Below, one piece after another: positions 1 to 31,377 of a stretch of DNA of 64,000 nucleotides. Source of the DNA: an uncultured bacterium (GTDB lineage Bacteria > Omnitrophota > Gorgyraeia > Ghiorseimicrobiales > Ghiorseimicrobiaceae); NCBI GenBank assembly GCA_913009335.1, contig CAJVXN010000001.1:2844-66843 (forward strand), written 5' to 3'. A program made the translations under genes and the position numbers. The notes beneath the pieces are model-generated. The model did not search any database. It worked only from the letters and a program-made list of their open reading frames with translations, and had not been told where the DNA came from. Numbering within the stretch: the stretch's first letter is position 1; each line of letters starts with the position of its first letter.

Positions 1-843
1 TACGGAGGATTATTTGAAATACTTGAGCCTGATGCCGGCTCAATACGCGGCACAGAAATTGTATGAGGCCCCACGCCAAATTTATCATCCAGATAACTAC
101 AATGCTTAAGCAAGGCTAAAGTCTCAAAACGATAATCATAAAGGCCAAAAAGTACGCCTATTCCGACATCATCAATGCCGGCTGCTTGCGCAACATCAAT
201 AGCGTACAACCTAGCGTCAAAATCACTCTTCGGACCGGAAGGATGCATAAATTTATACGTTCCCCCATGGTAGGTCTCCTGAAATATCTGATAAGTACCA
301 ATACCTGCTTTTTTTATCTTTTTAAACCCTGAATATTCTAGCGGCGCGACATTTATATTTACCCTGCGGATTTCACCTTTGGATTTATTAATACTATAGA
401 TTGTTTTAATTATATCTGCTAAATAATCAGCATTAATGTTATTATCCTGTCCTGCTACAACCAATAAACGCTTATGGCCTTCTGAAATTAAAAACTCGAC
501 ATCCTGTTTAATTTCGTCAGTGTCTATTAACTTACGCTTAAGCGTCTTGTTTTTATTTCTAAATCCGCAATAAAGACAGTTATTAGTACAAAAATTTGAG
601 ATATACAGGGGTGCAAAAAATACCAGGCGCCTTCCATAGATTAACTCTTTTATCTTACCTGCCGCACTAAAAAGCTCGGAGAGGTATTCATCCCGCGTAC
701 AGCTTAAAAGCATAGCTGCCTCACGGATATCTAACCCTTTTAGTGAGAAAGCCTTATTTATTATTTCTCTAAAAGAAACAGGAGAAAACTTCGTATTATG
801 AATTATTCCTAAGATCCCCTGCTCGTCAATAAATGATTTCATT
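1..843 (-). CDS. Radical SAM enzyme, ThiH/HydG (tyrosine lyase) family; N-terminal ~281 aa only, the C-terminus lies outside the window
   Basis: I translated the reverse complement myself. It gives ...RRLVFFAPLYISNFCTNNCLYCGFRNKNKTLKRK..., the CxxxCxYC radical-SAM motif in the FxPLYxSNxCxNxCxYCGF context typical of ThiH/HydG. The ATG is at 843-841 and is preceded by an AT-rich spacer. It sits immediately upstream of a HydE-like gene. Confidence 0.5.
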
Positions 844-850: not shown

Positions 851-2149
851 TTATTGCGCTCCGATATCAGTAGGTGCCCGGCCCAGGCGATATAACAGCT
901 TAAGGCTACGGGCAATCTGGGTCTCTACTTTTATATTGCGACTCCTGCGATTAGGATAAATATCATAAAGCCTGCGAAAATCTATTGGGGTAACATTAAT
1001 CATCAATGAATTAGCCCCGGCACTTAGGGCTTTTTCTTTAGCGGGTTTAGCTAAAGTCTCGGTTGCTGTTGTAACCAATATACGCGACTTCTTATCTATT
1101 ATGCGGGCAAGAGAAATCACCCTTAGCATTTTAGCCAATCGTATTTTCTTTAAAGAAGCCAATGGAGTATCCAGATGGGGTATTAAAGGACCGAATGAAT
1201 ACATCTCAGGCTTAAGTTTTTTAGTTAACTTAATATTATTTAGAATATCGGTATCGGTCTCATTGGGAAGACCGACTAAAAATCCTGTTGCAACCAAATA
1301 GCCTATATTCTTTAATGATTTTATAAGTTTTAACCTGTCTTCTAATTTTTTTTCCGGCCGCAGCGCCGAGTATATTTTAGGATTTGCACTTTCAAATCTT
1401 AAAAGCGCGCCTCGCACTCCAGCGTCAAAAAATGCCTGATAATCAGATTCAGATCTCTCTCCTAAGCTTAAAAAAATCAATACCGCGTATTTCTGCCTTA
1501 TTTTTCTTATAATTTCTAATACGCGAGCTTTAGTATAATAGGCATCCTCTCCAGCCTGTAATACCAGCACCTTAAATCCGCGCGAATTTACCGCGTAATC
1601 TACTGCCTCTAAAATCTGGTTTAATTTTAAACGATAGCGCTTTAATTTTTTATTGCTCTTTCTAATACCGCAATAAAGACAATCCCTCACGCAATAATTA
1701 GATATTTCTATTATTCCATGAATACAGCATGAGTTATCTATATATTTATTCCGTATTCTATTGGCTAGTTGTTGCGAAAATTTTCCCTCATCGCTACTTA
1801 CTCCATTTAATAAATATAAATAATCAGTTACTGACAACCTGCGTTTTTCATCAATCTTCTTAATAATAGCATCATAAGGCTTAGAAAGCCTAAGCCCTGA
1901 ATAACTTTTATTAATAAGGCTTTCGTCTTGATTTTTTAATTTACTAAACAGAACCTTCCATGTTTTTAATATGCTCTGCGCTTGAAGATGCGGTATTTTG
2001 CGTATTGCCATGCCCGCCTGCACATAAACATAATCTCCGATATCAAAATCCAATAAATCCTTCAGGACTTTCCTTTTCTGGCCGAAATACTCAACAGTAG
2101 CAAATCTTTCTTCTATCTTTATAACCCTGGCGGGTATTGCGTAACACAC
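851..2149 (-). CDS. HydE-like radical SAM maturase with an N-terminal HypC/HupF-like domain (fusion protein, 432 aa)
   Basis: The N-terminus reads MCYAIPARVIKIE...VEYFGQKRKV...DIGDYVYVQAGMAI, the HypC signature (MCxAIP with Cys2; the position of the conserved His is a Gln). Residues ~90-432 match the HydE/BioB family: IIEISNYCVRDCLYCGIRKSNKKLKRYRL, VLVLQAGEDAYY, GPLIPHLDTPLA. This resembles Thermotoga HydE as I remember it. Confidence 0.6.
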   Translation of the reverse strand: MCYAIPARVIKIEERFATVEYFGQKRKVLKDLLDFDIGDYVYVQAGMAIRKIPHLQAQSILKTWKVLFSKLKNQDESLINKSYSGLRLSKPYDAIIKKIDEKRRLSVTDYLYLLNGVSSDEGKFSQQLANRIRNKYIDNSCCIHGIIEISNYCVRDCLYCGIRKSNKKLKRYRLKLNQILEAVDYAVNSRGFKVLVLQAGEDAYYTKARVLEIIRKIRQKYAVLIFLSLGERSESDYQAFFDAGVRGALLRFESANPKIYSALRPEKKLEDRLKLIKSLKNIGYLVATGFLVGLPNETDTDILNNIKLTKKLKPEMYSFGPLIPHLDTPLASLKKIRLAKMLRVISLARIIDKKSRILVTTATETLAKPAKEKALSAGANSLMINVTPIDFRRLYDIYPNRRSRNIKVETQIARSLKLLYRLGRAPTDIGAQ

Positions 2150-2338
2150 AAGAAAATTCCTCCTAATTTTCGCAGTCCCCAGCGATTAGATTTCGAAGAA
2201 ATCTGCAGGGGGATTAAATTATTCCAACAAGAAAATTCCTCCTAATTTTCGCAGTCCCCAGCGATTAGATTTCGAAGAAATCTGCAGGGGGATTAAATTA
2301 TTCCAACAAGAAAATTCCTCCTAATTTTCGCAGTCCCG
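2148..2338. repeat. 79-bp tandem direct repeat, ~2.4 copies, between the hydrogenase endopeptidase gene and the HypC-HydE gene
   Basis: The unit acaagaaaattcctcctaattttcgcagtccccagcgattagatttcgaagaaatctgcagggggattaaattattcca starts at 2148, 2227 and 2306. The first two copies are identical. The third diverges after ~32 nt. Confidence 0.9.
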
Positions 2339-2347: not shown

Positions 2348-2800
2348 TTAATTTAGGATTTTTGTTATCTGATTAAGAACACCGGGAAAGCTTGCTTTAA
2401 CCTCGCTTGATAAATCATTGCAAAGAAGCAGATTATTCGGCTGGATACCAATAACATAAACTTTATTACGTATATCCAACATTTTATATAGTTTCAAAAA
2501 GTCCAACAATGAAAGACTGTGAGTCGATAATCTATTTTTAACAGTACCGGAATTTAAATCTTCTAAATAAAATCCTTTAACACTACCCGCGGGAGCACCA
2601 AAATCAGCTGCGTCAATTATAAATGTATAGAGATACTGCTTTATATAATTTAAAATATCTATACTCTGAGTGGAGAATTCAAAAAAATCAAAATCTTTAT
2701 TATTTAATTTATTTTTTAAATAAGCTAAGGCCTTAATCCCTACTCCGTCATCGCCCCGTAAAGTATTACCTACACCGGCAACCAAATACCGTTTAGACAA
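2348..2800 (-). CDS. [NiFe] hydrogenase maturation endopeptidase (HycI/HoxW/HybD family)
   Basis: LVAGVGNTLRGDDGVGIKA N-terminal motif. DAADFGAPAG and STHSLSL motifs. 150 aa. It overlaps the large-subunit gene by 8 nt. Confidence 0.8.
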   Translation of the reverse strand: MSKRYLVAGVGNTLRGDDGVGIKALAYLKNKLNNKDFDFFEFSTQSIDILNYIKQYLYTFIIDAADFGAPAGSVKGFYLEDLNSGTVKNRLSTHSLSLLDFLKLYKMLDIRNKVYVIGIQPNNLLLCNDLSSEVKASFPGVLNQITKILN

Positions 2801-4181
2801 ACTCTACCTCCAAGAGATGTGTCGAACAAGATATGCACGGGTCATATGCGCGGGCGAGCATCTCAAGATTTAGCTGTATTTCTTTTTTGGTTTTAGAAGG
2901 AAAAAGCTGAGGAACGAGTTCTTTCATGTCATTCTCTAAATTAAACAAGTTCTGTGCGGTAGGAATAATGCAGTTAGCGTGAGTAATTATACCGTTTTTA
3001 TCAACTGTATAATCATGATATAGGGTTCCGCGCGGTACCTCTACCGCACCCACCCCTCTGCCGGGCTTTACCTTAATTGGACGCTTCTTAACACTCGGCC
3101 AAGAAGTAACCAAACTTTCTTTTTCATTCAACCCCTTATCCAGTAATTCATCAATAATCTTAATCGACTCTTCCAGGCAATGCCTCCACTCAACAAGCTG
3201 TGCCACAGTATTTAAATAAGGATTATGAGATGGAGCAGAAAGACCTAAGCTTTTAGCTGCTTTTTTTGCCGCAGGATGAAGAAATTTATAGCTGTTATTA
3301 AAACGGGCAAGGGCTCCCACAGCATAAGACTCATCCTTAATAGAGGCAAATTTAGCCGTAGAGTAATCGCGAATAAATTCATTAACTACATTTAGATATT
3401 TCTGCGGATCAGTATTTTTCTTTGTTGAACTTACGTAAATATCACCGTCTAAATAAGCATAAGTTCCCAACTGTTTTAAAGAGACATACTGGGTGGGACG
3501 TATAAATTTCGGAAACTTTAATGTTTTGAATACCGCTACTGTCGCTTCGTAATCAACCCGAGAATCCGTCATCATTTTACGGAGTTTTAATAATGTCTTT
3601 TTAGCGGGCAGTTTGGTAAGCCCTCCGATGACAAAACTTATTGGGTGCACATGCCTACCGGCTAAAACATCACTGGTATAATCAGACATCTTCTTCATTC
3701 GTAAAGCAATTTCAATAACACTACGGTGAGTTTTAATCAAAGGGAATATACTATTTACGCCCAATAAATCAGGGGCAATTAAAATATAAAAATGTAATAC
3801 ATGACTGTCCATTGTCTCGGCATGCAATAACAATTGACGCAAGAGCTTAGTCTGCTTACTTACTTTAACACCCAGCGCAGCCTCTCCTGCCTTGATAGAA
3901 GCCAGGGTATGGCCGCAAGCGCAAATACCGCAAATACGACTGGTTATATGCTGCGCCTCATAAATAGAGCGGCCTACCAGCATAGACTCAAAAAATCGGG
4001 GCGATTCAATTACTTCAAAGCGACAATCAAGAAGCTTACCGTCCTTGACCTTAACCATAATATTGCCGTGTCCCTCTACGCGGGTTAAATATTTTACCTC
4101 TATATCCATATTACTCTTTGATTTCTTTAACATACTTTTTCTCCACAGCTGTATATAAAGTAAATTTATCAATAATCTCAT
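2793..4181 (-). CDS. [NiFe] hydrogenase large (alpha) subunit, group 3 (3b-like); the real start is probably the internal Met near 4109 (MDIEVKYLTRVEGHG)
   Basis: N-terminal RICGICACGHTLAS (RxCGxCxxxH) and C-terminal DPCISCSTHLLEVEFV (DPCxxCxxH plus a cleavable tail). Confidence 0.85.
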   Translation of the reverse strand: MRLLINLLYIQLWRKSMLKKSKSNMDIEVKYLTRVEGHGNIMVKVKDGKLLDCRFEVIESPRFFESMLVGRSIYEAQHITSRICGICACGHTLASIKAGEAALGVKVSKQTKLLRQLLLHAETMDSHVLHFYILIAPDLLGVNSIFPLIKTHRSVIEIALRMKKMSDYTSDVLAGRHVHPISFVIGGLTKLPAKKTLLKLRKMMTDSRVDYEATVAVFKTLKFPKFIRPTQYVSLKQLGTYAYLDGDIYVSSTKKNTDPQKYLNVVNEFIRDYSTAKFASIKDESYAVGALARFNNSYKFLHPAAKKAAKSLGLSAPSHNPYLNTVAQLVEWRHCLEESIKIIDELLDKGLNEKESLVTSWPSVKKRPIKVKPGRGVGAVEVPRGTLYHDYTVDKNGIITHANCIIPTAQNLFNLENDMKELVPQLFPSKTKKEIQLNLEMLARAYDPCISCSTHLLEVEFV

Positions 4182-4872
4182 TCACATCTAAACCGTAATT
4201 AGCAAGAATATCATTTTGCGCATCATTTGCGGGATTATCAATAAGCCCGCGGCAACCATAACATATATTGCCATTATTAACGCACCATGAGTTGCATCCG
4301 GCACGGGTAACAGGCCCCATGCAATTTTGTTCTTTTTGGTATAAACATACATTCTCGTTCATCTTGCATTCAACGCATACCGGATAATTCGGCACATCAT
4401 ACTTCTTTCCTAAAAGTAAACATTTAAATACCTCTGCCACTTCATTTGGATGCACAGGACATCCGTGTATATAATAATCAACTTTTATGACCTGATCAAT
4501 CGGCTTAACAGCTATGGTTTTAAACTTATCTGCCTTGTCTTTATATACACGCATTAAAGATATGTTTAAAGGCGTTCGGTTCTTTATCGCGTTTACCCCG
4601 CCGATAGTAGCGCAGGCACCAAGAGCTATAACAACCTTTGCCTGCTTTCGTATCCCGGTTATACGTTTAATATCATGCTCGGTTGAAATCGAACCCTCAA
4701 TAACAGCAATATCATAATCATCGCGAGGTTCACTCATTGCCTCGCGAAAATTTACTATCTCTATATGTTCAAGTATATCAAGAAGAACTGTATTAAGATT
4801 AACTATCTGCAGCTGACAACCTTCACAATCGGTAAAATCAAAAAAAGCGACTTTTGCCTTACTCTTTTTCAA
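4111..4872 (-). CDS. [NiFe] hydrogenase small (delta) subunit, group 3
   Basis: FDFTDCEGCQ N-terminal Cys pair. GACATIGG. C-terminal Cys cluster for a 4Fe-4S. 253 aa, typical of the short group-3 small subunit. Confidence 0.8.
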   Translation of the reverse strand: MKKSKAKVAFFDFTDCEGCQLQIVNLNTVLLDILEHIEIVNFREAMSEPRDDYDIAVIEGSISTEHDIKRITGIRKQAKVVIALGACATIGGVNAIKNRTPLNISLMRVYKDKADKFKTIAVKPIDQVIKVDYYIHGCPVHPNEVAEVFKCLLLGKKYDVPNYPVCVECKMNENVCLYQKEQNCMGPVTRAGCNSWCVNNGNICYGCRGLIDNPANDAQNDILANYGLDVNEIIDKFTLYTAVEKKYVKEIKE

Positions 4873-5720
4873 AATGCTTCCTCCATATTCCTGATATCAC
4901 TATATTTAAATACCGGTCCATTTTGACAAACATAGACACCGTTTATCTGACAATGACCGCATTTACCCAGGCCGCATTTCATTCTACGCTCAAGAGAAAC
5001 AATTATCTGTCTATCGGGAATTTCTTTCTTGAGTAATTCTTTGATTACGAACTTATACATCAAAGGAGGCCCAACTACTACCGCATACGTACGCATAGGA
5101 TTTAAATTAACGCCGGGAATAAGCTCAGTTATTAAACCAATATTCCCCTGCCAGTCAGGATCAGCTCTATCTACGGTACATCTAAACAAAATATCTAAGT
5201 GCCTGCCCCACTGGCCAATCTCATTATTAAATAACATATCCTTGGGACTCCTGCATCCTAATAATATATTTACAGCTCCGAAATCTTTACGATGATACAT
5301 GATATAGCGTATCAGACCTCGTAAAGGGACAATACCTAATCCTCCGGCAACAATCAAAATATCATTGCCAAAAAAATTCTCTACAGGAAAACCCTTGCCA
5401 AAAGGACCGCGCACACCAACTACATCCCCTTTTTTAAGATTATGCAAAGCGCTGGTTAACGTGCCTACATTTCTTACGGTTATCTCAAAATACCCCTTAT
5501 CAGTAGGTGAGGAGCATATTGAAATAGGCGCCTCCCCCCTACCGAACATCGAAATCTCGGCAAATTGTCCGGGCATATAATTAAAATCTTTATTATTCTT
5601 TTTCAATCTTAGGCGAAAAAGTTTTTCCAGATTTGTATACTGCTTAACCATGATAATCTCGGCCGGCATTGATCTATAAGGTGAATAGGGTAGTATTTTT
5701 TTAAATTCCGATTGAAACAT
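4869..5720 (-). CDS. Hydrogenase gamma subunit: FAD/NAD(P)-binding oxidoreductase with C-terminal 2Fe-2S (sulfhydrogenase HydG / PyrK-like)
   Basis: Ferredoxin-reductase-type fold motifs (GGLGIVPL) and C-terminal CGLGKCGHCQ. 283 aa. Confidence 0.7.
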   Translation of the reverse strand: MFQSEFKKILPYSPYRSMPAEIIMVKQYTNLEKLFRLRLKKNNKDFNYMPGQFAEISMFGRGEAPISICSSPTDKGYFEITVRNVGTLTSALHNLKKGDVVGVRGPFGKGFPVENFFGNDILIVAGGLGIVPLRGLIRYIMYHRKDFGAVNILLGCRSPKDMLFNNEIGQWGRHLDILFRCTVDRADPDWQGNIGLITELIPGVNLNPMRTYAVVVGPPLMYKFVIKELLKKEIPDRQIIVSLERRMKCGLGKCGHCQINGVYVCQNGPVFKYSDIRNMEEAF

Positions 5721-6753
5721 TTCTATGCTCTCTGATTAGGCTATTTACGGTCTCAGTCAAATTTATTTCTGCCATACAAGTACGACTGCACCTGCCGCAG
5801 CCAGTACAAAAATAACGGCTAAATTTATCTATAGGATACTTAAATTTACGATAATAGCGGTGTCTTTGACGGGCGGATCGACCCGGCCTAAAATCTTCCC
5901 CTCCGGCAACCTTGGCAAAATCATCCATCTGACATGAGTTCCAAAGCCGATAACGCAAACCATCATTAAGATTAAGGCTTACTTCATCCAAAACATCAAA
6001 ACAGTAACATGTCGGACATACAGCCGTACAATTCCCACACCCAACACACCTTTTACCTACATCTTTCCATATCTCACTATCATACAACTTAGAAAATACA
6101 GCATAAAGTTCAGTAAGACGCCCGATAAACTCTTCCTTAAATATTTTCTCTTTTTTCTTGCGTACTGCATCCAATAAATACCTATCGGCGGAAATGCATT
6201 TCTTTATATAGCTACGCTGCCGTAAGATGCTCTCGGCTTTTGCGGAATTAATATGGATTATATATTTATTCCCGACATCCGTAAGCATGATGTCGTATCC
6301 CCCCTTAGGCACGTGATTCCCCATAGATACACAATTTGCATATTTATCACAAGGAGTAAGACATTCAATGCCGACAGTAGTCATGCGGTCCTTACGATTG
6401 ATATAATTGGCATCTAAAGGCTCCTGGCGAAACACTACATCCATACACTGAATACCTGCTATATCACAAGTATGCACGCCAAATAATACGAATTCTTCAA
6501 ATTTACGTATTGCTTTTGCGGTCTTAAATGGTTTTATTTTAAACTTTAATAGTCGTTCCTTTTGTGGAAAATAATATTTTTTAGGCGGAAGTATTGTAGA
6601 AATATAATTTAGATCGAGCTCCTTAACGTCTTTAATCGGCCGAAATACATGCCTGCCATCTTTTTTCTTGGGCCCATAGAGCTTACCGTGATCTTCTAAA
6701 GATTCAAGCCACCGATTAAAATCTTTCTTACTTATCTTTGCGTATCTTTCCAT
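5701..6753 (-). CDS. Hydrogenase beta subunit, Fe-S protein (sulfhydrogenase HydB-like)
   Basis: CVGCGNCTAVCPTCYC and CTGCGRCSRTCM 4Fe-4S motifs. 350 aa. It is the first structural gene of a beta-gamma-delta-alpha operon. Confidence 0.7.
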   Translation of the reverse strand: MERYAKISKKDFNRWLESLEDHGKLYGPKKKDGRHVFRPIKDVKELDLNYISTILPPKKYYFPQKERLLKFKIKPFKTAKAIRKFEEFVLFGVHTCDIAGIQCMDVVFRQEPLDANYINRKDRMTTVGIECLTPCDKYANCVSMGNHVPKGGYDIMLTDVGNKYIIHINSAKAESILRQRSYIKKCISADRYLLDAVRKKKEKIFKEEFIGRLTELYAVFSKLYDSEIWKDVGKRCVGCGNCTAVCPTCYCFDVLDEVSLNLNDGLRYRLWNSCQMDDFAKVAGGEDFRPGRSARQRHRYYRKFKYPIDKFSRYFCTGCGRCSRTCMAEINLTETVNSLIREHRNVSIGI

Positions 6754-6762: not shown

Positions 6763-7008
6763 TTAGCTTAGTTCATAGCTGTCAAAGCTAAGAGGTGCGC
6801 CGATTTCTGTTTCTTTTATTTCAAGCTTCACATCTTTCCAAGGCGTATTTTTTATAAACTGATAAAAATGCTCTTTAAAACGATCTCTCTTGATGCCGCC
6901 AAACAAAGAAAGTGCTACAACTATTTTTGAAACCCTGGATACATCATCTAAAGCTAGCTGCTTAGCAACTTTGTTCAACAAATCTTTTATTAAATTACTT
7001 TCATGCAT
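6763..7008 (-). CDS. HypA-like protein (N-terminal Ni-binding domain only; the Zn-finger domain is absent)
   Basis: It starts MHESNLIKDLLNKVAK..., matching the HypA/HybF MHE(L/M)S N-terminus. It is only 81 aa and has no Cys at all. Confidence 0.45.
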   Translation of the reverse strand: MHESNLIKDLLNKVAKQLALDDVSRVSKIVVALSLFGGIKRDRFKEHFYQFIKNTPWKDVKLEIKETEIGAPLSFDSYELS

Positions 7009-7070
7009 ATAATACCTATTTAATTTTAAGATTTAATTTTACCACAAATTAATTGTTTTGCAATAGTTAT

Positions 7071-7135: not shown

Positions 7136-7720
7136 TTACTCTTCCCCCTTAAATTTTTCATAATCCTTTTCAGTATTTATGTTTGCAAATGACAGTCCCT
7201 GCGGGTCAAAATGCGATACCTCATCGTGCTTAATTTTTTTAATTTTTACCCCTGTGAGGAAATCCGTCAATTTAAAATTATTTTTTTCGAACTGACGCTT
7301 AATAGAACTAATGCAACTTTTTGAATAAAAGGCATAAAGAGGCTCAAGCTTCCGCCTAAATTCCGGCACAACCACATCATAATCTTTTATATAATTCCGC
7401 ATGTATTCTATTAATAAAGTATTTACATGCGGCATATCTGAGGCGATTAGAAAATTATACTGACCATCTGAATTTATTAATGCAGAATATATTCCCCCTA
7501 GGGGCCCTTTATCCAACGCAATATCTGAAAATAACCGCACGCCTAATGCTTTGTAGCGTTCTAAAGAATTAGTAATAATAATAAGATCATCGAATACAGA
7601 CTTTAATTCTCTTATCTGTCTTTCAATAATAGTCTCACCATTTAAATTTAGCAATCCTTTATGGGGAACAAACCTAGTCCCTTTCCCCCCGGCAAGTATA
7701 GCTGCGGTCACCTTCATCAC
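7136..7720 (-). CDS. mobA: Molybdenum cofactor guanylyltransferase
   Basis: AAILAGGKGTRF NTP-transferase motif. 194 aa. It lies inside a Moco cluster. Confidence 0.75.
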   Translation of the reverse strand: MMKVTAAILAGGKGTRFVPHKGLLNLNGETIIERQIRELKSVFDDLIIITNSLERYKALGVRLFSDIALDKGPLGGIYSALINSDGQYNFLIASDMPHVNTLLIEYMRNYIKDYDVVVPEFRRKLEPLYAFYSKSCISSIKRQFEKNNFKLTDFLTGVKIKKIKHDEVSHFDPQGLSFANINTEKDYEKFKGEE

Positions 7721-7870
7721 ACTAAATCCTTTATAATAATTAATAATTGTTACAGGTAATATTTAAGGTGTTACAGCTCCTGACAAAATTCATCTTATCC
7801 ATAGAGATAGGCCATCCTAATACCTTTACTCAGCAGGGTAGGCCTTACCCGTTCTGTTTAGGGAAGGGCC

Positions 7871-9148
7871 TTAAGGGATGGGCCTTATAAGCTGGACCTT
7901 AATCGTATCGCCTTTTTTAATCTTTGTAACATTCTCTGGTATAACTGCTATCCCATCTGCTAAAACAAGAGATTTCAATATTCCTGATCCTTGAGGACCG
8001 GTTAGTCGAGCTAAAATTTTACCATTATTAGTCTCTAATTTTACTCTTAAAAAATAGCATAAATCTTTTTTCTTCTTAATTGTCTCCTGCGAGACCGCAT
8101 AAACTTCACAATGCCGGAAGTTTTTTACTCCGCAGGACCACATTATTGCCGGACGCACAAATTCTTCAAAACAAATAAGGCTGGATACGGGATTCCCCGG
8201 CATACCAAATATTAAAACTTTCCCTAACACAGCAAATAATAAAGGTTTTCCAGGGCGCATCTTAATACACCAAAATTTAATATCGGCGCCTAATTCTATT
8301 AAGACATCTTTAACGAAATCGTAATCACCAACCGACACCCCTCCGGAAATAAGCAGCATATCGAGGTTTAAACTTATCGCCTTTTTAATCTTAGCTCGAA
8401 TTTTTAATCTTTTATCGCGAACAATACCTAAATTAACAGGCATGCTCCCACAATCTAGAACCGCGCTATAAAGACTATAGCCGTTAGAATTACGTATTTT
8501 ACCGATAGCCAAGGGCTTTCCCGGATCAACTAATTCATCGCCTGTTGAAAGAATACCTACTACTAATTTCCTATAAACGCATACCCTGGTCAAGCCTAAG
8601 GCAGCAAACATTCCTACATCCGATGGCCCAATTTTTTTACCTTTCCTTAAAACCGTATCTTTCTTTTTTATATCCTCTCCTGCATATCTTACGTTTTCCC
8701 CTTTTTTGGGCTGATGTAAAATTTTAACATGCTGCACGTCCATCTCCATAGTCTCTTCTACTTTCACTACAGAATCAGCTCCTAGAGGAAGTGGCGCTCC
8801 CGTCATTATCCGGATTGCCTGATTAAATTTTATTTTTTTCTTAGATACGACTCCTGCGGGAAGATCATCGATTATTTCAAATATCTTAGGATTGCTTTTT
8901 GATGCGCCTTTTGCGTTTCTTGAATTAATTGCAAAACCATCCATAGCTGAATTATTAAATGGAGGAATATTGATTTTTGACTTAATATCATTTGCAAGAA
9001 TTCTACCGAAAGAAGGTAAAATAGCTACCTTCTCTGATTTTACCGGGTTCATATTGGTACGTATAATACTCATTGCCTTTTTAACATCTATCATTTTATA
9101 TTTTATTCTCCATATCGTTTTGCAGTTTCTCAATTTTAACAATCCCAA
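7871..9148 (-). CDS. moeA: Molybdopterin molybdotransferase (start is probably the internal Met near 9094)
   Basis: GADSVVKVEE, ISGGVSVGDYDFVKD and GMPGNPVS MoeA motifs. Confidence 0.8.
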   Translation of the reverse strand: MGLLKLRNCKTIWRIKYKMIDVKKAMSIIRTNMNPVKSEKVAILPSFGRILANDIKSKINIPPFNNSAMDGFAINSRNAKGASKSNPKIFEIIDDLPAGVVSKKKIKFNQAIRIMTGAPLPLGADSVVKVEETMEMDVQHVKILHQPKKGENVRYAGEDIKKKDTVLRKGKKIGPSDVGMFAALGLTRVCVYRKLVVGILSTGDELVDPGKPLAIGKIRNSNGYSLYSAVLDCGSMPVNLGIVRDKRLKIRAKIKKAISLNLDMLLISGGVSVGDYDFVKDVLIELGADIKFWCIKMRPGKPLLFAVLGKVLIFGMPGNPVSSLICFEEFVRPAIMWSCGVKNFRHCEVYAVSQETIKKKKDLCYFLRVKLETNNGKILARLTGPQGSGILKSLVLADGIAVIPENVTKIKKGDTIKVQLIRPIP

Positions 9149-10280
9149 ATATAAATAAATAAGAAAAAATCAAACCTATCGCAAAACCGATTGCTATAGA
9201 TTTTAATGCAAGAGTTGTAGCTGCGGTTAAAAACATTACAAAAAAATCTGTTTTACTTACCATGTCTCGACTCACCACTGCTAATTCAAAACCTGCAAAC
9301 AATAAAAGTATCCCTAAGACACTTACTGGATATGCTGAGAATATTTTTAAACAGGCGGCCCCGAATAATAAACCTACAAATATCTTAACAATACCAAGCA
9401 AAAATACACTTCCCCCCGTTCTAGCCCCAAATCTATATTGTGCCGCTAACCCTCCTGCGCCATGGCACATGGGCATTGCTCCGAACCAACATCCGATTAA
9501 ATTCATAAGCCCAACACTAATAGCAATCCCCCTGGGATTAACCCCTTTCTTAGGAAAAAGATCCCATGATAAAGCACAAACAGCAATTACCGAGTTTAAC
9601 AAAGTTAAAGGAATCTGTGCAATCGATGCCCTCATTACCCCTACAATAAAGTCGCTTTTCCCGGGAATTATAAATCTTGGAACAGCAAACCCGATATTCA
9701 ATTCCTTAAAGATGTGGGGAGATTTTAAAAAAACCAGTATAATACCTAAACCACATACCACCAGCGCTCCCGGAAAACGCTTACTGAATAAAAACACAAG
9801 AACCAATAACATGGATATTATACCGATAGAGATACTATCATAACCAAAAAAGGTATTAGTATTAGCTACCATCTGTATCCCTGTAATAACTAATTTTAAT
9901 CCCAAACCTAACTGCAGACCCCTTACTACGCTCTTAGGTATCATCTTGTTAAGGTGTGAAATTATATTTGTTATTCCCAGTAAAAACACTACAAAACCGG
10001 TAACTAGCCCAGCAGCGAATATTTGATTAGGAGATAATCTTTCTGCGATGGCAATAATTGCAATTGCCTTCATCGGTTGTACAGCTATAGGTATGCCAAA
10101 TAACATAGCACTCAAAACACTAAACAATCCAGAAAATATTAAAATATTTGCCGGGCTAAGACCGCAGACTGTAACCAACCCCACAAATAGAGGAATAAAT
10201 ATACCCATATCACCCAAGGAACCTGCAATCTCGGATATATTAAATTTAAATGATTTTATATTATTATGAATGAAATTCAT
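9096..10280 (-). CDS. MOT1-family (SulP-related, no STAS domain) anion permease, putative molybdate transporter
   Basis: About 11 TM helices. SLGDMGIFIPLFVGL resembles the GDLGTxIP signature of MOT1 molybdate transporters. The gene is embedded between moeA and mogA. Confidence 0.5.
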   Translation of the reverse strand: MNFIHNNIKSFKFNISEIAGSLGDMGIFIPLFVGLVTVCGLSPANILIFSGLFSVLSAMLFGIPIAVQPMKAIAIIAIAERLSPNQIFAAGLVTGFVVFLLGITNIISHLNKMIPKSVVRGLQLGLGLKLVITGIQMVANTNTFFGYDSISIGIISMLLVLVFLFSKRFPGALVVCGLGIILVFLKSPHIFKELNIGFAVPRFIIPGKSDFIVGVMRASIAQIPLTLLNSVIAVCALSWDLFPKKGVNPRGIAISVGLMNLIGCWFGAMPMCHGAGGLAAQYRFGARTGGSVFLLGIVKIFVGLLFGAACLKIFSAYPVSVLGILLLFAGFELAVVSRDMVSKTDFFVMFLTAATTLALKSIAIGFAIGLIFSYLFIFGIVKIEKLQNDMENKI

Positions 10281-10298
10281 TCTTTGACTAAAAACTAT

Positions 10299-10811
10299 TT
10301 AATGTTCTCTTCCAAGAATCATATCTAAGCCATGGGGTAATTCTTCTATAATCGCCTCCAAAGACTCCTTCGCGCCCTTAGAACTACCGGGAAGATTAAT
10401 TATAAGAGTATTCTCTCGTAATCCAGCAACACCCCTTGAAAGCATTGCCCGTTTAGTAATATGCAGACAGCTAACTCTCATTGCTTCCGATATCCCCGGA
10501 ACCTGTTTATGAACAATTTCCAAAGTTGCCTCGGGAGTAGAATCCCTTGGCCCCAACCCCGTTCCCCCGGTGGTAAATACAACATCTAACTTAAGGTTAT
10601 CAGAATAATGAATAAGTTTTTCTTTAATCATGTCAGGCTCATCAGGCACTATTTCATATATTGCAAGTTCATAATTTTTTGACTTTAAAATTTCTAGAAT
10701 AATCTTACCGCTCTTATCCTCCCTCTCCCCTTTAGAGCATTTATCACTTATAGTTAAAACTCCCGCTTTATACATTTGATTCCCCTTTTTTCTGAGTAGC
10801 AACAATCTCAT
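10299..10811 (-). CDS. mogA: Molybdenum cofactor biosynthesis protein MogA/MoaB
   Basis: TTGGTGLGPRDSTPEA motif. 170 aa. Confidence 0.8.
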   Translation of the reverse strand: MRLLLLRKKGNQMYKAGVLTISDKCSKGEREDKSGKIILEILKSKNYELAIYEIVPDEPDMIKEKLIHYSDNLKLDVVFTTGGTGLGPRDSTPEATLEIVHKQVPGISEAMRVSCLHITKRAMLSRGVAGLRENTLIINLPGSSKGAKESLEAIIEELPHGLDMILGREH

Positions 10812-11229
10812 CTCCTGGCCTTATGACTCCTGCCTTTAAAACAGTCGCAAAAATACCTTCAGTAGGCATAACACAGTCTCCCGCCTGATAATAAATAGCA
10901 CATCTTGTGTGACACTCTTTACCTATCTGGCTTATTGCTAAAACAGCATCTTTACCTATCTTTACTCTATCTCCGATATTAAGCGTTAGAAGATCAATGT
11001 CTTTTGTTGTAATATTTTCAGCAAAATCACCAGGACCTACATCAAGCCCTTTTTTTCTTATCTTTTCTATAGACTCAATAGCTAAAAAACTTACCTCTCG
11101 GCCACTCCCGGCATGAGCGTCATTTAAAACCCCAAAGTTTTCGCGCAATTCTACCATTGGCACGTTTTTCTTTTTAACGCCTTTACTTTTTGAAATTGAT
11201 GTTGCGATTATTTTTCCTTTTATCATCAT
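10768..11229 (-). CDS. MOSC-domain protein
   Basis: About 150 aa with a beta-barrel-type sequence and a conserved Cys (GKECHTRC). Moco neighbourhood. Confidence 0.5.
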   Translation of the reverse strand: MMIKGKIIATSISKSKGVKKKNVPMVELRENFGVLNDAHAGSGREVSFLAIESIEKIRKKGLDVGPGDFAENITTKDIDLLTLNIGDRVKIGKDAVLAISQIGKECHTRCAIYYQAGDCVMPTEGIFATVLKAGVIRPGDEIVATQKKGESNV

Positions 11230-11282
11230 GTTATATTTGCTTATATCTTATCTTCTATCCATATGGATAAGTCTACTACAAT

Positions 11283-11645
11283 TTATTTATTAAGACCTCC
11301 CAGAATATCATCAACCCAAGATAGTGACGCCATGGCTCTGGGCCAGCCAATAGTAGTAATAGCTAAAATCGCAGCATGGTAGATTTCTTCATCGCCTATT
11401 CCCGCTTTTTTACATTTACGGACATGAGAATGCACCCCGCCCTCAAGACCTGCCCCAATAGCAATGCCCAGCTTAACCAACCTCTGCGCGCGCTCATCAA
11501 TAGCGCCGACTCCTCTGACAGACTCTCCTAACTTTGTATAACTTTCCCAAACTTGCGGATATTTCTTAATGACTTTTTGTAAAAATTCAGGTAATTCTTT
11601 ATTCATCTCTGCCTCCTCAATGAGTACACGATTTACGGAATGCAA
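11283..11645 (-). CDS. Carboxymuconolactone decarboxylase / AhpD-like family protein
   Basis: 120 aa. A helical AhpD-like core (GGVHSHVRKCKKAGIGDEEIYHAAIL). Confidence 0.5.
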   Translation of the reverse strand: MHSVNRVLIEEAEMNKELPEFLQKVIKKYPQVWESYTKLGESVRGVGAIDERAQRLVKLGIAIGAGLEGGVHSHVRKCKKAGIGDEEIYHAAILAITTIGWPRAMASLSWVDDILGGLNK

Positions 11646-11739
11646 ATCGTAAGTACGAATTGATCCCGCCGAATATTTAAAAATTATCGTAGAAAATTTT
11701 CAAATAGATTATGAGGCGGGGTAACATTCAATTGCCTTA

Positions 11740-12666
11740 CTATCCCCCAACACTAGACATATATACCCCTGATTCCTCCCAGCTAGTATAATCAATAGCA
11801 TCCTTTGTAGACATTAAATTTTTTATCTTGGCCTTAATAAAGCTATCTTCTACACCGCTTCTTAAGAAATCTCTCAAAGATACACCCTTAGGCTGATAAA
11901 GACATAATTTTAACTCCCCTATCGCAGTTAACCTTAAACGTGAGCACATTCGGCAATTTAAGCTATGTGTCTTTATAAACCCGATTATTCCATCACTATA
12001 TCGATAATATTCTGCTGGCCCTAAATTCCGGTATCCTATCCATTCAAGGCCAAATTTACTATGACAAATATTTCTAACTTTCTCAATCGGCACAAAAAAA
12101 CTTTCCTCCCATAAAGGGGTAACCTTCATAAATTCAATAAATCTTAAAATCAAATTATTCTCCTGGGCAAAATTAACAAAATCAACTATCTCATCATCAT
12201 TAACCTGCTTTCTTACTACTACATTTAGCTTTACAGTATTAAAAAGCTTTCGAGCGCGATTAATACCATCTAGAACCTGACCAAGAAGATCTTTTCCTGT
12301 TATTGACTTAAACCGCTCTTGTCTAAGAGTATCCAGGCTTATATTCATGCTTTTAAGTCCTGCATTTTTTAAATCTTTTACATAAGAAGAAAGAAGGATT
12401 CCGTTAGTGGTAAGGCAGATTTCTTCTAAACCATCTATTTGGCTAATATTTTTCACTAAATCCACTATACCTTTTCTTACTAAAGGCTCCCCTCCGGTAA
12501 GACGTATTTTTTTTATACCTAAATCAGCGAAGATTTTTAAAAACCGCAATATCTCTTCAAAACTAAGTATCGCCTCATGCGGCTGAGTAACAATTCCTTC
12601 CTTAGGTATGCAGTATCCGCATCTTAAATTGCAACGGTCAGTAATAGAAAGTCTTAAATATCCCAT
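11740..12666 (-). CDS. moaA: GTP 3',8-cyclase (radical SAM)
   Basis: LRLSITDRCNLRCGYCIP. C-terminal Cys motif for the second cluster. 308 aa. Confidence 0.85.
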   Translation of the reverse strand: MGYLRLSITDRCNLRCGYCIPKEGIVTQPHEAILSFEEILRFLKIFADLGIKKIRLTGGEPLVRKGIVDLVKNISQIDGLEEICLTTNGILLSSYVKDLKNAGLKSMNISLDTLRQERFKSITGKDLLGQVLDGINRARKLFNTVKLNVVVRKQVNDDEIVDFVNFAQENNLILRFIEFMKVTPLWEESFFVPIEKVRNICHSKFGLEWIGYRNLGPAEYYRYSDGIIGFIKTHSLNCRMCSRLRLTAIGELKLCLYQPKGVSLRDFLRSGVEDSFIKAKIKNLMSTKDAIDYTSWEESGVYMSSVGG

Positions 12667-13368
12667 TTATACTCGTTTTTTATAAGTAAATTTAGAAAAA
12701 ATTACTCCCATCTCATACAATAAAATCAGGGGCAGGGCCATTAATACTTGAGTAACAACATCCGGAGGAGTCATAAGTGCTGCAGCGATAAAAACCAACA
12801 CGATCGCTTCTCTCCTTCTTGCTGCTAAAGTAGCTGGGGTAACTATCCCAACTTTAGTTAAAAAAATAAGGGCTATAGGTAACTGAAACACGATAGCAAA
12901 CGCAAAAGATAGGCTTGCTACAAAAGAGATATAATTACTTATGGAAATCATGGGAGTCAAAAAATCAGTCTCAAAACCCAAAAGAAACTTTACCCCCAAA
13001 GGTGTAATAACAGAATATCCGAATATCAACCCTGATGCAAAAAGAAGAAAAGAAACTGGACCAAAAAAGTAAATAAGTCGTCGCTCATCAATCATCAACC
13101 CCGAAGAGATAAATTTCCAAACCTGATAAAGTATAAAAGGCGACGAAATAATTAATCCTACAAACAATGCGATCTTTATATTGGCAATGAATGCTTCTTG
13201 AGGAGCAATAAATACAAGCTTACCAGCGGGTTTTATCAAAGAAGGCAAAATTTTATCACTAAAGCTATAGATAGCTATCGAACAAATCACCAAAAAAATT
13301 AAGGACCTAATAATACAACTCCTTAATTCATCTAAATGCTCGACTAAAGATAGTTTTTCATCTTTCAT
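12667..13368 (-). CDS. tatC: Twin-arginine translocase subunit TatC
   Basis: Six-TM protein. HLDELRSCIIRSL N-terminus typical of TatC. Confidence 0.8.
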   Translation of the reverse strand: MKDEKLSLVEHLDELRSCIIRSLIFLVICSIAIYSFSDKILPSLIKPAGKLVFIAPQEAFIANIKIALFVGLIISSPFILYQVWKFISSGLMIDERRLIYFFGPVSFLLFASGLIFGYSVITPLGVKFLLGFETDFLTPMISISNYISFVASLSFAFAIVFQLPIALIFLTKVGIVTPATLAARRREAIVLVFIAAALMTPPDVVTQVLMALPLILLYEMGVIFSKFTYKKRV

Positions 13369-13403
13369 CTATAATAAAATTAAATACTTGCAACAAAATA
13401 TAA

Positions 13404-13586
13404 TTATTTCTTTTTTTCTTCGTTGGTTGCGTCTTTAATATCATCTTTAATTTCTTTAGCCCCCTTCTTAAACTCCTTAATCGAGCGACCCAAAGCACGG
13501 GCAATCTCAGGAAGACGCGTTGCTCCAAATAATACCAGGACTATCAACAAAATTACAATAAGCTCTCCCATCCCAAACCGAAACAT
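13404..13586 (-). CDS. tatA: Twin-arginine translocase subunit TatA/E
   Basis: MFRFGMGELIVILLIVLVLFGATRLPEIARALG: a TM helix, an FG hinge and an amphipathic helix. Confidence 0.8.
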   Translation of the reverse strand: MFRFGMGELIVILLIVLVLFGATRLPEIARALGRSIKEFKKGAKEIKDDIKDATNEEKKK

Positions 13587-13696
13587 AATACCCTCCTATG
13601 CTAAAATTACAGTGTTTTTATAATAATTAAACCATTACATAATAAAATTCAAAATAAATAGTTTGTATCAGGAATAAAAAAGAGAGGCAAAAACTA

Positions 13697-14314
13697 TTAA
13701 TAACCAGAATTACACCTACTTGTAAGATTTCTCTGGTCTTCTTCAATAAATGATCTTGTAAGTCGGGCTAATTTTCTATAAAAGGCCTGATGAGCACCTG
13801 CTTCTACGCTAGCAGTAAACTTATTCACCCATCTACCAAGGTGCATACCCAAAAAAGATGCCTGCTTCTGACAATAACCAAAAGCAGTATTAGAATCCTT
13901 ATTTTTCATCGATTCTGCCTCTCTAAAAATAAGCAAATACATGAATTCTAATTCTACGGCAATATGGTCAGGTGCCTCCCTTACAGTAATATCTAAGCCT
14001 TCTTTCCTGTACCACTTTTTTACATCCATAGTTGAGTCACCCATAATTCTTCTTGCGCCCTCAAGATAAACCGACCCATAAGGGGGTGCGAGTAACTTGT
14101 ATGGCCCGAGGAAAAGTTTTGAGTAATCAATTTTTAACGATACGATGTCATCTACCTCTGGAATATTCTTGATAACTTCCAGAGTCAAGCCATTTTGTGA
14201 TTCTTTAAATGCTTTTAATGCTCCGATCAACTTCTCATCCGGGGCGTAATAGCAATCTGACAATAACTTATATAAATCAGACCTCACATTGTCACAAACT
14301 AAATCATTCTTCAT
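13697..14314 (-). CDS. TorD/DmsD/NarJ-family redox-enzyme maturation chaperone
   Basis: KLFLGPYKLLAPPYGSVY and EAPDHIAVELEFMYLL motifs. It lies directly downstream of the Mo-enzyme catalytic subunit. Confidence 0.7.
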   Translation of the reverse strand: MKNDLVCDNVRSDLYKLLSDCYYAPDEKLIGALKAFKESQNGLTLEVIKNIPEVDDIVSLKIDYSKLFLGPYKLLAPPYGSVYLEGARRIMGDSTMDVKKWYRKEGLDITVREAPDHIAVELEFMYLLIFREAESMKNKDSNTAFGYCQKQASFLGMHLGRWVNKFTASVEAGAHQAFYRKLARLTRSFIEEDQRNLTSRCNSGY

Positions 14315-16896
14315 TAAAGTTTTACTATTTTAACCCTAGTCAAGGCATAAAATGCCGAAGACCCGCTCAAACGGTCATAATCGGCAGGAATAATAGTATT
14401 GTTATTCCCTCCTCTTGCAACCTTGCCAAACTTTTTAGCGGCTACTTTCCCATAAGCCCAATGTCCTTGCCCGTAACATTTTGCAACAGTTCCGGGACGC
14501 ACGCCTTCCCATAACTTTGCCGTACATTCAATCTCGCCAATTTTAGAAATCAGTTTAATTTTATCTCCGTTTTTTATTCCTACCTTACTAGCATCAACGG
14601 AATTTATCTTAGCTACATCATCCCAAGCCTCATCTCCCGGATCAATATCTTTCAACTCCTGATACCAAGTACAATTTGCGGACCTACCTTCTCTATTTAG
14701 GCGGGATTTGTAATCTACAAGCTGAAAAGGAAACTCACTCTTCCTCCCCCAGACAAACGGCTCTTCATAATGAGGCATAAATGCTTTATCTCCTCTAGCT
14801 TGATATTTACAAAGACTCATAATTTTATCAATACTTGTTTTATATTTCTCTGCGTGTTGAGTTAAAGCTGCCTTCAATGTTTCACTATAAAACTCGAACT
14901 TTTTTGTTTTAGTTTTCATCTTCCCCCATCTTGCCCTGTAATGATAAGGATCTGAATTCCAAACACCCCTAGCGGTAAAGTCTTTCCAGCCGCTTAATTT
15001 ATCACCGCCTTTATATTCCTTTGGATCCCAAAGGTTCCTGGTAACATACTTAAGAGCATAAAGAGCAAACTCTTTTTCGTTGGCTGGCGATTTACCAGTT
15101 TCAGGATCTTTGTATTCCATGTAATGCATGAGAAGATTATCAAATCCCCTATCGCTAAGTTTTTCAGCAAGTAACCAAGGAATCTCGGATTCATCTGTTC
15201 GAATATCCCATACCAAATCAGTAACAGGCTTAAGCAGAGTAACATGGCGATACGCGTTTCCGTGTGATTTAACATAACCCCATTTCTCAAACATATGATG
15301 CGTAGAAGGTAAAACTATGTCCGCAAACCAGGTAAATTCAGCGGCATGTGTGGTAATATGTACGGTAAAAGGGATTTTGCTTAAGGCTTTTTCCCAACGT
15401 TCAGTTCCAGGACAGGAAAAAGGAAAATTATTCATATAGGCAATGACTACCTTTATTTCGTTAGGATCCTTATCCAATATCGCATCTGCTACTCTATTAG
15501 TAACAACCCCACTACCAGGCTTACCTTTTTTCAAAGCAGGAAACTCTTTTGTACCTCTATGATCCATCTTCTTATGCTTTTTCCCTTTTTTGGCAATCTC
15601 GTCCATAAATGAATCGGGCTTGGGGAATTTCCCTGTATACTCCTTATTAGCCTTAAGAGTCCCCCCTAAATTATCTACTGATCCTACTAGCCCATTGAGC
15701 GCATGTGTCGCCATGGCCCCATAACATCCTCTAACCTGCATAGAAGGACCACCGCCAACCCAACAAATAGCATGCGGGGCAGCTTTGGCAAAGCCTATAG
15801 CTACTCTCTTTATCTGTTCGACACTTATCCCTGTTATTTTTGCTGCCCATTCCGGCGTCTTATCTTTTAATTCAACATTCCACCATTTAATCAGTCCATA
15901 CGTATATTTCTCCTGAAAAGTAAGTTTTTTATTAACTTCTCCCTTTAGAGTAAATTCTTCGAGGATTCTTTTTTTCGGTATAAATTCTTTCACAGGAGAA
16001 TCCTTATCAAAATCTCCAACGAAATCTTTATACCATAAGCCATTAGTAAGGATAACATGAGCGAAGGCCGATGCCAAAGCTCCATCTTCTCCGGGCTTAA
16101 TCGGCAACCACTCATCAGCCTTTGTAGCTGTAGCTGAAAATCGAGGATCTACAACAGCAACTTCTGCCCTATCAAGCATATCTCCCCATTCACTTAGATA
16201 ATAAGAAACCTGCCGATTAGCAGAAACAGGATCAGCGCCCCAAAGAAGCACATATCTAGCATTCTTAATATCATATTGCCGATAACCCCATAATCCTTCG
16301 GTATAATAAGATCCGAATTTTTCCGCCTCAGCACAAATTGCACTATGAGAAATATTATTGGGAGAGCCGATGATTTTAGTCATGCGGTCATAGATAATAT
16401 CGCGCATATAAGAGTATCTTCCCCTCATAAGCATATACTTGTGTGTTTCATTATTATTCCTGAGTTCCATTATTTTATCTGCTACAGTATTAAGAGCCTC
16501 ATCCCAAGATATAGGAACAAATCCAGGATCTTCATTTCTACCTTTCTTAGGATTAGTCCTTTTCATCGGTAATTTGATCCTATCCGGGTCATAAACTTGC
16601 TGAAGAGCCATATGGGATCTTGGACAGCTTGCTTTTCCGTTTACCTTTGAGTTTGCGTTTCCTCTAACTTTAACAGCTCTACCATCAACTACATAAACCT
16701 CCACAGAACACCAGGAAGTACATCCCTGACAAGTAGTTGCCTTCCACTCACCGGAAGCTGCAAATAAAGGCTTATCCGTTGCAGCAAAAGCCCGCAAAAC
16801 AGGTTTAAGATTATAAGCAACTGTTGCTACTACTCCGGTAGCTGCTGCAGTTTTCATAAAAGCTCGACGACTCAATTTTTTCTTCGCAATATCCAT
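14314..16896 (-). CDS. Tat-exported molybdopterin oxidoreductase catalytic (A) subunit, Psr/Phs/Ttr/Arr-like clade; substrate unknown
   Basis: Tat signal LSRRAFMKTAAATGVVA. N-terminal C-x2-C-x3-C-x~30-C 4Fe-4S motif (CQGCTSWCS...CPRSH). 860 aa. Confidence 0.75.
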   Translation of the reverse strand: MDIAKKKLSRRAFMKTAAATGVVATVAYNLKPVLRAFAATDKPLFAASGEWKATTCQGCTSWCSVEVYVVDGRAVKVRGNANSKVNGKASCPRSHMALQQVYDPDRIKLPMKRTNPKKGRNEDPGFVPISWDEALNTVADKIMELRNNNETHKYMLMRGRYSYMRDIIYDRMTKIIGSPNNISHSAICAEAEKFGSYYTEGLWGYRQYDIKNARYVLLWGADPVSANRQVSYYLSEWGDMLDRAEVAVVDPRFSATATKADEWLPIKPGEDGALASAFAHVILTNGLWYKDFVGDFDKDSPVKEFIPKKRILEEFTLKGEVNKKLTFQEKYTYGLIKWWNVELKDKTPEWAAKITGISVEQIKRVAIGFAKAAPHAICWVGGGPSMQVRGCYGAMATHALNGLVGSVDNLGGTLKANKEYTGKFPKPDSFMDEIAKKGKKHKKMDHRGTKEFPALKKGKPGSGVVTNRVADAILDKDPNEIKVVIAYMNNFPFSCPGTERWEKALSKIPFTVHITTHAAEFTWFADIVLPSTHHMFEKWGYVKSHGNAYRHVTLLKPVTDLVWDIRTDESEIPWLLAEKLSDRGFDNLLMHYMEYKDPETGKSPANEKEFALYALKYVTRNLWDPKEYKGGDKLSGWKDFTARGVWNSDPYHYRARWGKMKTKTKKFEFYSETLKAALTQHAEKYKTSIDKIMSLCKYQARGDKAFMPHYEEPFVWGRKSEFPFQLVDYKSRLNREGRSANCTWYQELKDIDPGDEAWDDVAKINSVDASKVGIKNGDKIKLISKIGEIECTAKLWEGVRPGTVAKCYGQGHWAYGKVAAKKFGKVARGGNNNTIIPADYDRLSGSSAFYALTRVKIVKL

Positions 16897-16983
16897 ATCT
16901 CTTCTCCCCTCCCCTTAAAAACTCTTTCGATATATTACATCTTAAGTGATACCAGAAAACTTAGAAAAAATACAATACTTTCT

Positions 16984-23391: not shown

Positions 23392-23409
23392 GAATACACC
23401 TTTTAGTTT

Positions 23410-23868: not shown

Positions 23869-23874
23869 AAGAGG

Positions 23875-24603: not shown

Positions 24604-24650
24604 CCCGTCCGTCCTTCCTAAGCTTATTCCCTCCTTTGGGAAAGGCGGGG

Positions 24651-30130: not shown

Positions 30131-30154
30131 AATAAATAAACTTTGATAAGGAAA

Positions 30155-30742: not shown

Positions 30743-30744
30743 AA

Positions 30745-31374: not shown

Positions 31375-31377
31375 ATT

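Follow-up and report, generated by a model that had tools for sequence, protein, structure and literature searches.

A zinc-finger-less HypA homologue, conserved in Omnitrophota, is encoded ahead of a predicted group-3b-type [NiFe] hydrogenase

The window, that is the whole 64-kb stretch of DNA that was analysed, carries on its minus strand a co-directional operon with the gene order mini-hypA, the beta, gamma, delta and alpha hydrogenase subunit genes, hycI, hypC::hydE and hydG. The first gene, mini-hypA (6763..7008, minus strand), encodes an 81-aa Cys-free protein (MHESNLIKDLLNKVAKQLALDDVSRVSKIVVALSLFGGIKRDRFKEHFYQFIKNTPWKDVKLEIKETEIGAPLSFDSYELS; from end to end MHESNLIKDLL...SFDSYELS) that corresponds to the nickel-binding domain of HypA only and begins with Met1-His2-Glu3. 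An earlier note on this DNA had placed the ORF at the head of a hydrogenase operon, and both the order of ORFs in the window and the annotation of related loci bear this out. The ATG is the earliest start codon available downstream of an in-frame stop, and the stop codon is separated by 9 nt from the start of the next gene at 6753. This spacing leaves no room for a decayed zinc domain downstream of mini-hypA, which is therefore excluded. Database entries with a protein identical to mini-HypA come from a ‘Candidatus Omnitrophica bacterium’ MAG and from marine metagenomes.

Upstream of mini-hypA there is a 127-nt gap, beyond which lies a mobA-like gene. Within this gap a consensus scan identified a promoter-like element, TTGCAA-16 nt-TAAAAT with a TG-extended −10 (7036..7063, minus strand), situated 28 nt upstream of the mini-hypA ATG. 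The count of promoter-like consensus matches was not above that expected from shuffled sequence, and the element is only consistent with an operon start at this point, being no more than chance gives.

The four genes that follow encode the subunits of a [NiFe] hydrogenase. The beta subunit (5701..6753, minus strand) is a ShyB/HydB-like 4Fe-4S protein containing the Pfam domain Fer4_22, with the sulfhyd_ShyB and HydB models as its best NCBIfam matches, below their cut-offs. The gamma subunit (4869..5720, minus strand) is a ShyC-like FAD/NAD(P)-binding protein with FAD_binding_6, NAD_binding_1 and DHODB_Fe-S_bind domains, and its NCBIfam ranking is led by PRK08345 (‘cytochrome-c3 hydrogenase subunit gamma’), followed by AsrB and, third, ShyC, all of them below their cut-offs. 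The delta (small) subunit (4111..4872, minus strand) contains the Oxidored_q6 domain and is closest to sulfhyd_HydD and ShyD, and the large (alpha) subunit (2793..4181, minus strand) contains the NiFeSe_Hases domain and is closest to sulfhyd_ShyA and HydA, again below the respective cut-offs. Translation of the large-subunit gene revealed the motif RICGICACGH and, at the C-terminus, DPCISCSTH followed by a 7-residue extension, LLEVEFV. The full four-subunit set, both large-subunit nickel-binding motifs (RxCGxCxxxH and DPCxxCxxH) and best or near-best NCBIfam matches, all of them below the equivalog cut-offs, point to a hydrogenase of the group-3b (sulfhydrogenase) type.

Taken at its greatest length, the large-subunit ORF shares 71 nt with the small-subunit gene and is 16 residues longer than the public calls. 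The true start is probably internal, since the public annotation gives a protein of 446 aa that begins 16 codons later. Read from that start, the large subunit has the N-terminal tail MLKKSKSNMDIEVKYLTRVEGHG, which is the presumed chaperone docking site. The hydrogenase genes are followed by a gene for a HycI-type maturation endopeptidase (2348..2800, minus strand; Pfam HycI, E 1.7e-13). In the established pathway this endopeptidase cuts the large subunit only after nickel has been inserted (PMC12134894).

The earlier note had taken the MHE start as the sign of a HypA homologue, while allowing that a profile search might reveal no significant similarity. Alignment to HypA profiles decides in favour of homology. 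The Pfam HypA model (PF01155) scored 34.1 bits against mini-HypA, above its gathering cut-off of 28.9 (E 2.9e-8), with residues 1-69 of the protein aligned on profile positions 1-69 of 112. The NCBIfam hypA equivalog (TIGR00100) scored 20.4 bits against a cut-off of 88.1, a failure that is to be expected because a third of the model, the zinc domain, has no equivalent in mini-HypA. A single-sequence phmmer search of mini-HypA against PDB sequences returned no HypA and only weak chance matches to MoaE and ClpB. When a profile of 108 relatives was used instead, there were three PDB matches in total, all of them HypA chains, including T. kodakarensis HypA (E 4.2e-6) and H. pylori HypA (E 1.2e-4). 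Since the family profile matches HypA chains only, the similarity to HypA is not a chance one.

An AlphaFold2 model of mini-HypA, calculated with the family alignment as input, had a pLDDT of 90.2 and a pTM of 0.80, and the best 12 matches in a Foldseek search with this model were all HypA structures. The predicted topology is a1 (2-17), b1 (26-34), a2 (41-52), b2 (61-67) and b3 (73-80), which makes up the alpha/beta fold of the nickel domain, complete with the closing C-terminal strand of the sheet. As nearly every residue aligns, strand 73-80 must be the equivalent of the C-terminal strand that follows the zinc finger in HypA, which means that the zinc domain has been cleanly excised, with a turn at Gly70 in its place. 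Where ordinary HypA carries its zinc-finger insertion of ~ 35-60 residues, mini-HypA has a 5-residue turn about an invariant glycine.

Domain fission is a frequent event, and in HypA flexible linkers tie the inserted zinc domain to the rest of the protein (PMC7055735). It is conceivable on these grounds that HypA has been split, and that a zinc-ribbon half encoded by a separate small gene, or fused to some other protein, joins mini-HypA non-covalently. The confident model, however, closes the sheet by a tight turn with no need of a partner, and no recurrent small zinc-ribbon ORF (CxxC-X8-30-CxxC) turned up in the window or, at about 22 distinct related loci, within 10 kb of mini-hypA; a separate zinc-finger ORF elsewhere was one of the things for which the earlier note had suggested a check. 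A split HypA is accordingly considered very unlikely.

In order to place mini-HypA in a family, homologue searches of different depth were compared. A word-indexed search yielded 2 proteins only, and it was the exhaustive searches of representatives and with profiles that opened up the family. A phmmer search of 1.84 billion representatives gave 9 relatives, all of 80-88 aa, and a profile search gave 687 proteins, the best 120 of which are nearly all exactly 80 aa in length. The few longer members are gene calls that have been extended upstream. The same truncation recurs across the lineage, the ~ 80-aa architecture being present in hundreds of sequence clusters. The start MHE is found in 108 of 122 family sequences (MHD in three more), 87 of the 122 contain no Cys at all, and a paired CxxC occurs in none. 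Together with the absence of any Cys from the 81 residues encoded in the window, this upholds the statement of the earlier note that the CxxC...CxxC zinc-finger domain is missing.

The alignment of 108 sequences showed Met1, His2 and Gly70 to be invariant (108/108 each), with Glu3 conserved in 104 (and Asp in three more), Phe44 in 105, Gly54 in 104 and Thr55 in 99. In characterised HypA the ligands of Ni(II) are the N-terminal amine, His2 and Glu3 (PMC7055735; PMC12134894), and it would seem that mini-HypA has the same putative site. A different reading is that the nickel domain of HypA has been re-purposed as a nickel-independent holdase, with Ni arriving by another route. Such a role could draw on the HyhL–HypA complex, in which the bound N-terminal tail goes together with an active site that is kept open (PMC12134894), and the loss of the zinc domain and of an additional histidine ligand reported for archaeal HypA could indicate a relaxed nickel chemistry. 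A pure holdase, however, would have no reason to keep the exact N-terminal nickel motif or the precise position of the start codon, and Met1 and His2 are kept in every aligned sequence and an acidic third residue in 107 of the 108. The holdase is regarded as improbable.

Comparison of the window mini-hypA with a relative of 83% identity gave a dS of 0.46 and a dN of 0.084. In three other relatives synonymous differences (pS 0.38-0.43) likewise far outnumbered non-synonymous ones (pN 0.02-0.05). The mini-hypA gene is under purifying selection, with a dN/dS of about 0.05-0.18. This bears directly on the alternative raised in the earlier note that the ORF might be a degraded remnant, to which a pseudogene or a mis-called ORF can be added. 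A short length and a score below the cut-off of the strict NCBIfam hypA model are what might be expected of a remnant; set against this are the length and sequence kept in hundreds of clusters, the selection just described, a fixed adjacency to hydrogenase genes, tight gene spacing, no leftover zinc-domain sequence and a confident fold prediction. A remnant is so improbable that it can be dismissed. As judged from these sequence comparisons, mini-HypA is confirmed as a real, conserved, phylum-wide zinc-less HypA.

The relatives from the profile search that have an organism name at NCBI are all Candidatus Omnitrophica/Omnitrophota. The genomic setting of the family was examined with a locus scan of one genome per GTDB species, based on a 15-sequence alignment that reaches the largest subfamily only. 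This gave 19 loci, of which 15 are titled Omnitrophota/Omnitrophica, three ‘uncultured Planctomycetales’ and one simply ‘bacterium’; the four without an Omnitrophota title are loosely labelled MAGs. At all 19 loci mini-hypA lies directly upstream of the beta, gamma, delta and alpha subunit genes and hycI.

Other subfamilies occupy other positions. One is encoded by the last gene, after hycI, of an operon for an Mbh/Mrp-type membrane-bound [NiFe] hydrogenase. Another lies between hypF(C-terminal part)-hypC-hypD-hypE and 3b hydrogenase genes (loci L010 and L011), at a site after hypE that is the slot where hypA/hypB would normally be expected. One further subfamily is found ahead of a 3b operon and beside an [FeFe] hydrogenase cluster. 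As each subfamily is tied to one hydrogenase operon, whether 3b or membrane-bound group 4, mini-HypA could be an enzyme-specific nickel insertase, similar to the HybF/HypA split in E. coli.

The 80-aa mini-HypA of the Mbh/Mrp operon is encoded at positions 8406-8648 of locus L007 (with counterparts in L008 and L009), where it starts MHESHLIEPIIKGISEHA... and overlaps the end of hycI. At the same locus, 2 kb from mini-hypA and on the opposite strand, is a gene for a 364-aa ParA/Mrp/MinD-family ATPase with CBM48 domains, which might conceivably be a HypB of the archaeal type.

No second HypA-like ORF, no HypB signature motif (ENVGNLVC-like) and no HypB-like P-loop was found in the 64-kb window or within 10 kb of mini-hypA at 30 loci (about 22 of them distinct). 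Extension to the right beyond the window brought in unrelated genes only. These observations have to be weighed against the main rival reading, that of a specialised paralogue; the holdase, the split protein and the pseudogene are minor by comparison. According to the paralogue reading, full-length HypA and HypB are encoded elsewhere in the genome and mini-HypA is an extra, enzyme-specific adaptor that either takes Ni from this pair or is its competitor, and the zinc domain would be dispensable only because the canonical proteins acquire the metal. Well-known paralogues of HypA, among them HybF of E. coli, confer specificity for particular hydrogenases (PMC12134894), each mini-HypA subfamily goes with one type of hydrogenase operon, and only about 20 kb was inspected per genome. 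Against this stand the lack of a full-length HypA or HypB in the stretches searched and the two loci at which mini-hypA fills the hypA slot of a hypF-C-D-E cluster. Moreover, the KO table of Seymour et al. (2023; PMC10066038 supplement), in the part covered here, lists hypA, C, D, E and F for one Omnitrophota genome with hyp genes, genome 231 (Velamenicoccia, 92.7% complete). For that genome the same part of the table shows no hypB KO and a single hypA KO, in which mini and full-length forms are not told apart, and it amounts to one data point. On balance the paralogue reading is possible but somewhat doubtful.

The reading that is preferred here is that mini-HypA is a nickel-domain-only chaperone, with putative Ni-binding activity, that is dedicated to the adjacent hydrogenase, and this is probably correct. 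It is favoured because mini-HypA has kept the whole nickel domain with its invariant N-terminus, and the operon still supplies HycI and a 3b large subunit that ends in a C-terminal extension. Mini-HypA is likely to be a nickel insertase, and independence from a classical HypB GTPase is suggested only. In the proposed mechanism, the ligands of Ni(II) at the extreme N-terminus would be those of characterised HypA, namely the Met1 amine, His2 and Glu3. Mini-HypA would then dock on the N-terminal tail of the unprocessed 3b-type large subunit and pass Ni to the active-site cysteines, after which the co-encoded HycI would cut off the 7-residue C-terminal extension. A parallel for the docking step is found in T. 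kodakarensis, where HyhL, a group-3b large subunit, reaches the nickel site of HypA with its N-terminal tail (PMC7055735; PMC12134894).

Loss of the zinc domain might be expected to have consequences. Roles in structural stabilisation, in pH and nickel sensing in H. pylori and in partner interaction have been ascribed to it (PMC7055735; PMC13202556). In H. pylori, mutation of the zinc-site Cys residues lowered or abolished hydrogenase activity (PMC5557546; PMC7055735), and a 2026 paper describes the HypA zinc site as essential for partner interaction (PMC13202556), so that a HypA without the domain might no longer perform the classical function. The missing zinc-domain contributions fit with the lack of a linked hypB, which suggests a simpler and possibly HypB-independent hand-over. 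Affinity for the metal may also be affected. In the HypA–HypB complex of T. kodakarensis, attributed to Watanabe et al. (2015), the high-affinity Ni site reportedly recruits His98 near the zinc domain. Since mini-HypA has no counterpart of this histidine, in which it differs from archaeal HypA, its affinity for Ni may be only micromolar.

How mini-HypA relates to known proteins can be set out as follows. The HypA proteins of E. coli, H. pylori and T. kodakarensis (PF01155) are 113-139 aa in length, whereas members of the mini-HypA family have 80 aa and no CxxC-Xn-CxxC domain; mini-hypA also differs in having no adjacent hypB and in scoring below the strict NCBIfam equivalog cut-off. HybF is a HypA paralogue that serves hydrogenases 1 and 2 of E. 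coli and keeps its zinc site. Like mini-HypA, HybF is a HypA-family protein that is encoded in a hydrogenase operon and is specific for that enzyme (PMC12134894); it works with HypB, unlike mini-HypA as it is read here, which has no linked hypB. The ‘HypA-like’ proteins of Acetobacterium wieringae were considered as a precedent and rejected, as both CxxC motifs are kept in them.

A precedent for a Hyp factor without its zinc finger is HypF1 of Cupriavidus necator, a naturally N-terminally truncated HypF that has no zinc-finger part and is yet functional. HypF1 differs from mini-HypA in being another protein that acts at another step, the synthesis of the cyanide ligand and not nickel insertion. 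The Omnitrophota HypF of loci L010 and L011 is likewise C-terminal-only. The protein encoded beside mini-hypA at these loci (6198-7337 in L010 and 6440-7585 in L011) has only ~ 380 aa and matches the HypF model, which has 741 positions, at 389-738 only; it has neither the acylphosphatase nor the zinc-finger part. HypF is on this evidence a second Hyp factor in Omnitrophota to have lost its zinc-finger region.

All HypA proteins have a nickel site and a CxxC zinc site according to a review (PMC7055735). By its family profile, motif, fold and genomic context mini-HypA belongs with HypA, and it would work like HypA and yet fall outside this usual two-site definition. Public annotations of the family read ‘HypA’ or ‘Zn finger protein HypA/HybF’, and the latter label is wrong for mini-HypA. 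A search of open-access text for truncated or zinc-less HypA, or for hyp genes in Omnitrophota, produced no description of the mini-HypA family. A phylum-wide family that is under selection and is missing exactly the zinc domain represents a natural experiment, and its existence speaks for a nickel domain that suffices for the core function. What the zinc domain does has long been debated (a structural role, a regulatory one or coupling to HypB), and comparing or swapping domains would put this directly to the test. An 80-residue minimal chaperone also becomes available for biophysics and for heterologous production of hydrogenases. If HypB should truly be absent from these genomes, this would speak for nickel insertion without an NTPase in small-genome anaerobes.

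The distal part of the operon encodes two further maturation-type proteins. Downstream of hycI is a gene for a HypC::HydE fusion (851..2149, minus strand), in which an N-terminal HypC/HupF domain starting Met-Cys is joined to a HydE-type radical SAM protein (Pfam HupF_HypC, Radical_SAM and BATS). The fusion scored 275 bits with the NCBIfam HydE model (TIGR03956; cut-off 254.6), and its N-terminal domain scored 50.3 bits with hypC_hupF (cut-off 48). The last gene (3..842, minus strand), which runs off the window, encodes the first 280 aa of a HydG-type radical SAM maturase, with 297.9 bits to the NCBIfam rSAM_HydG model on the partial protein. The exact HypC::HydE product of the window is not on record in sequence databases, and no description of a HypC::HydE fusion was found in the literature. 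No [FeFe] hydrogenase signature was detected in the 64-kb window.

Of the related loci, 14 reach far enough to be informative; in 10 of these HypC::HydE comes after hycI, and in three of the 10 HydG adjoins it (loci with HypC::HydE were noted as L013, L021-L024, L026-L030, L032 and L033). At all 19 group-i loci, hypD, hypE and hypF are absent within 10 kb, and the two loci that have hypF-C-D-E (L010 and L011) are without the fusion. HypC::HydE and hypF-C-D-E look to be locally mutually exclusive (10 loci against two). As an architecture the fusion is very widespread. Both domains were present in all of the best 120 of 1089 matches to the fusion, and the organism names among these 120 are Omnitrophota, Patescibacteria, Aenigmarchaeota, Micrarchaeota, Planctomycetota, Gammaproteobacteria and Nitrospirota.

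HydG is a tyrosine lyase that produces Fe-bound CO and CN. It is conceivable, albeit unlikely, that many Omnitrophota have a streamlined [NiFe] maturation system encoded within the operon, in which mini-HypA inserts Ni without the HypB NTPase while HydG and HypC::HydE, whose HydE part is an [FeFe]-type radical SAM enzyme, take over from HypD, HypE and HypF the supply of the iron-carbonyl-cyanide unit. If true, this hybrid toolkit would be a mix of two hydrogenase maturation pathways that have been thought separate. The notion that HypC::HydE always stands beside a [NiFe] hydrogenase had to be rejected, as at one Patescibacteria and one Aenigmarchaeota locus no hydrogenase was found within 10 kb of the fusion, and the standing of the hybrid pathway was lowered because of this. 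HypC::HydE may be nothing more than a maturase of the [FeFe] type that bears a HypC-like domain as carrier.

Between hycI and hypC::hydE lies a perfect tandem repeat of 79 bp in 2.4 copies (2148..2337, no strand assigned; TRF, 100% matches, score 380). Each 79-bp unit contains a palindrome, an AGGAGG ribosome-binding site and a start region, and a public annotation of this locus places the start of the gene inside one of the copies, in a different frame. The repeat may have arisen by a recent duplication or serve as a regulatory array, or it may be an artefact of the assembly.

Directly upstream of the hydrogenase operon, at 7136-17877 on the minus strand, is a block of molybdenum cofactor and Tat genes. 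It comprises mobA, moeA, a gene for a MOT1-type molybdate transporter, a moaB-like gene, MOSC and CMD-family genes, moaA, tatC and tatA, as well as genes for a NarJ-like chaperone and for an 860-aa molybdopterin oxidoreductase with a Tat signal and its 4Fe-4S partner. The moeA, moaA and MOSC genes flank the hydrogenase operon in L010 and L011 too. Further along the window, at 23400-35400 on the minus strand, NuoF-like (603 aa) and NuoE-like 2Fe-2S proteins are encoded together with DRTGG, CBS and HATPase regulators, in a cluster with no recognisable hydrogenase catalytic subunit. These genes are followed by those of an Rnf-type complex, with an RnfC-like protein encoded at 33050-34555.
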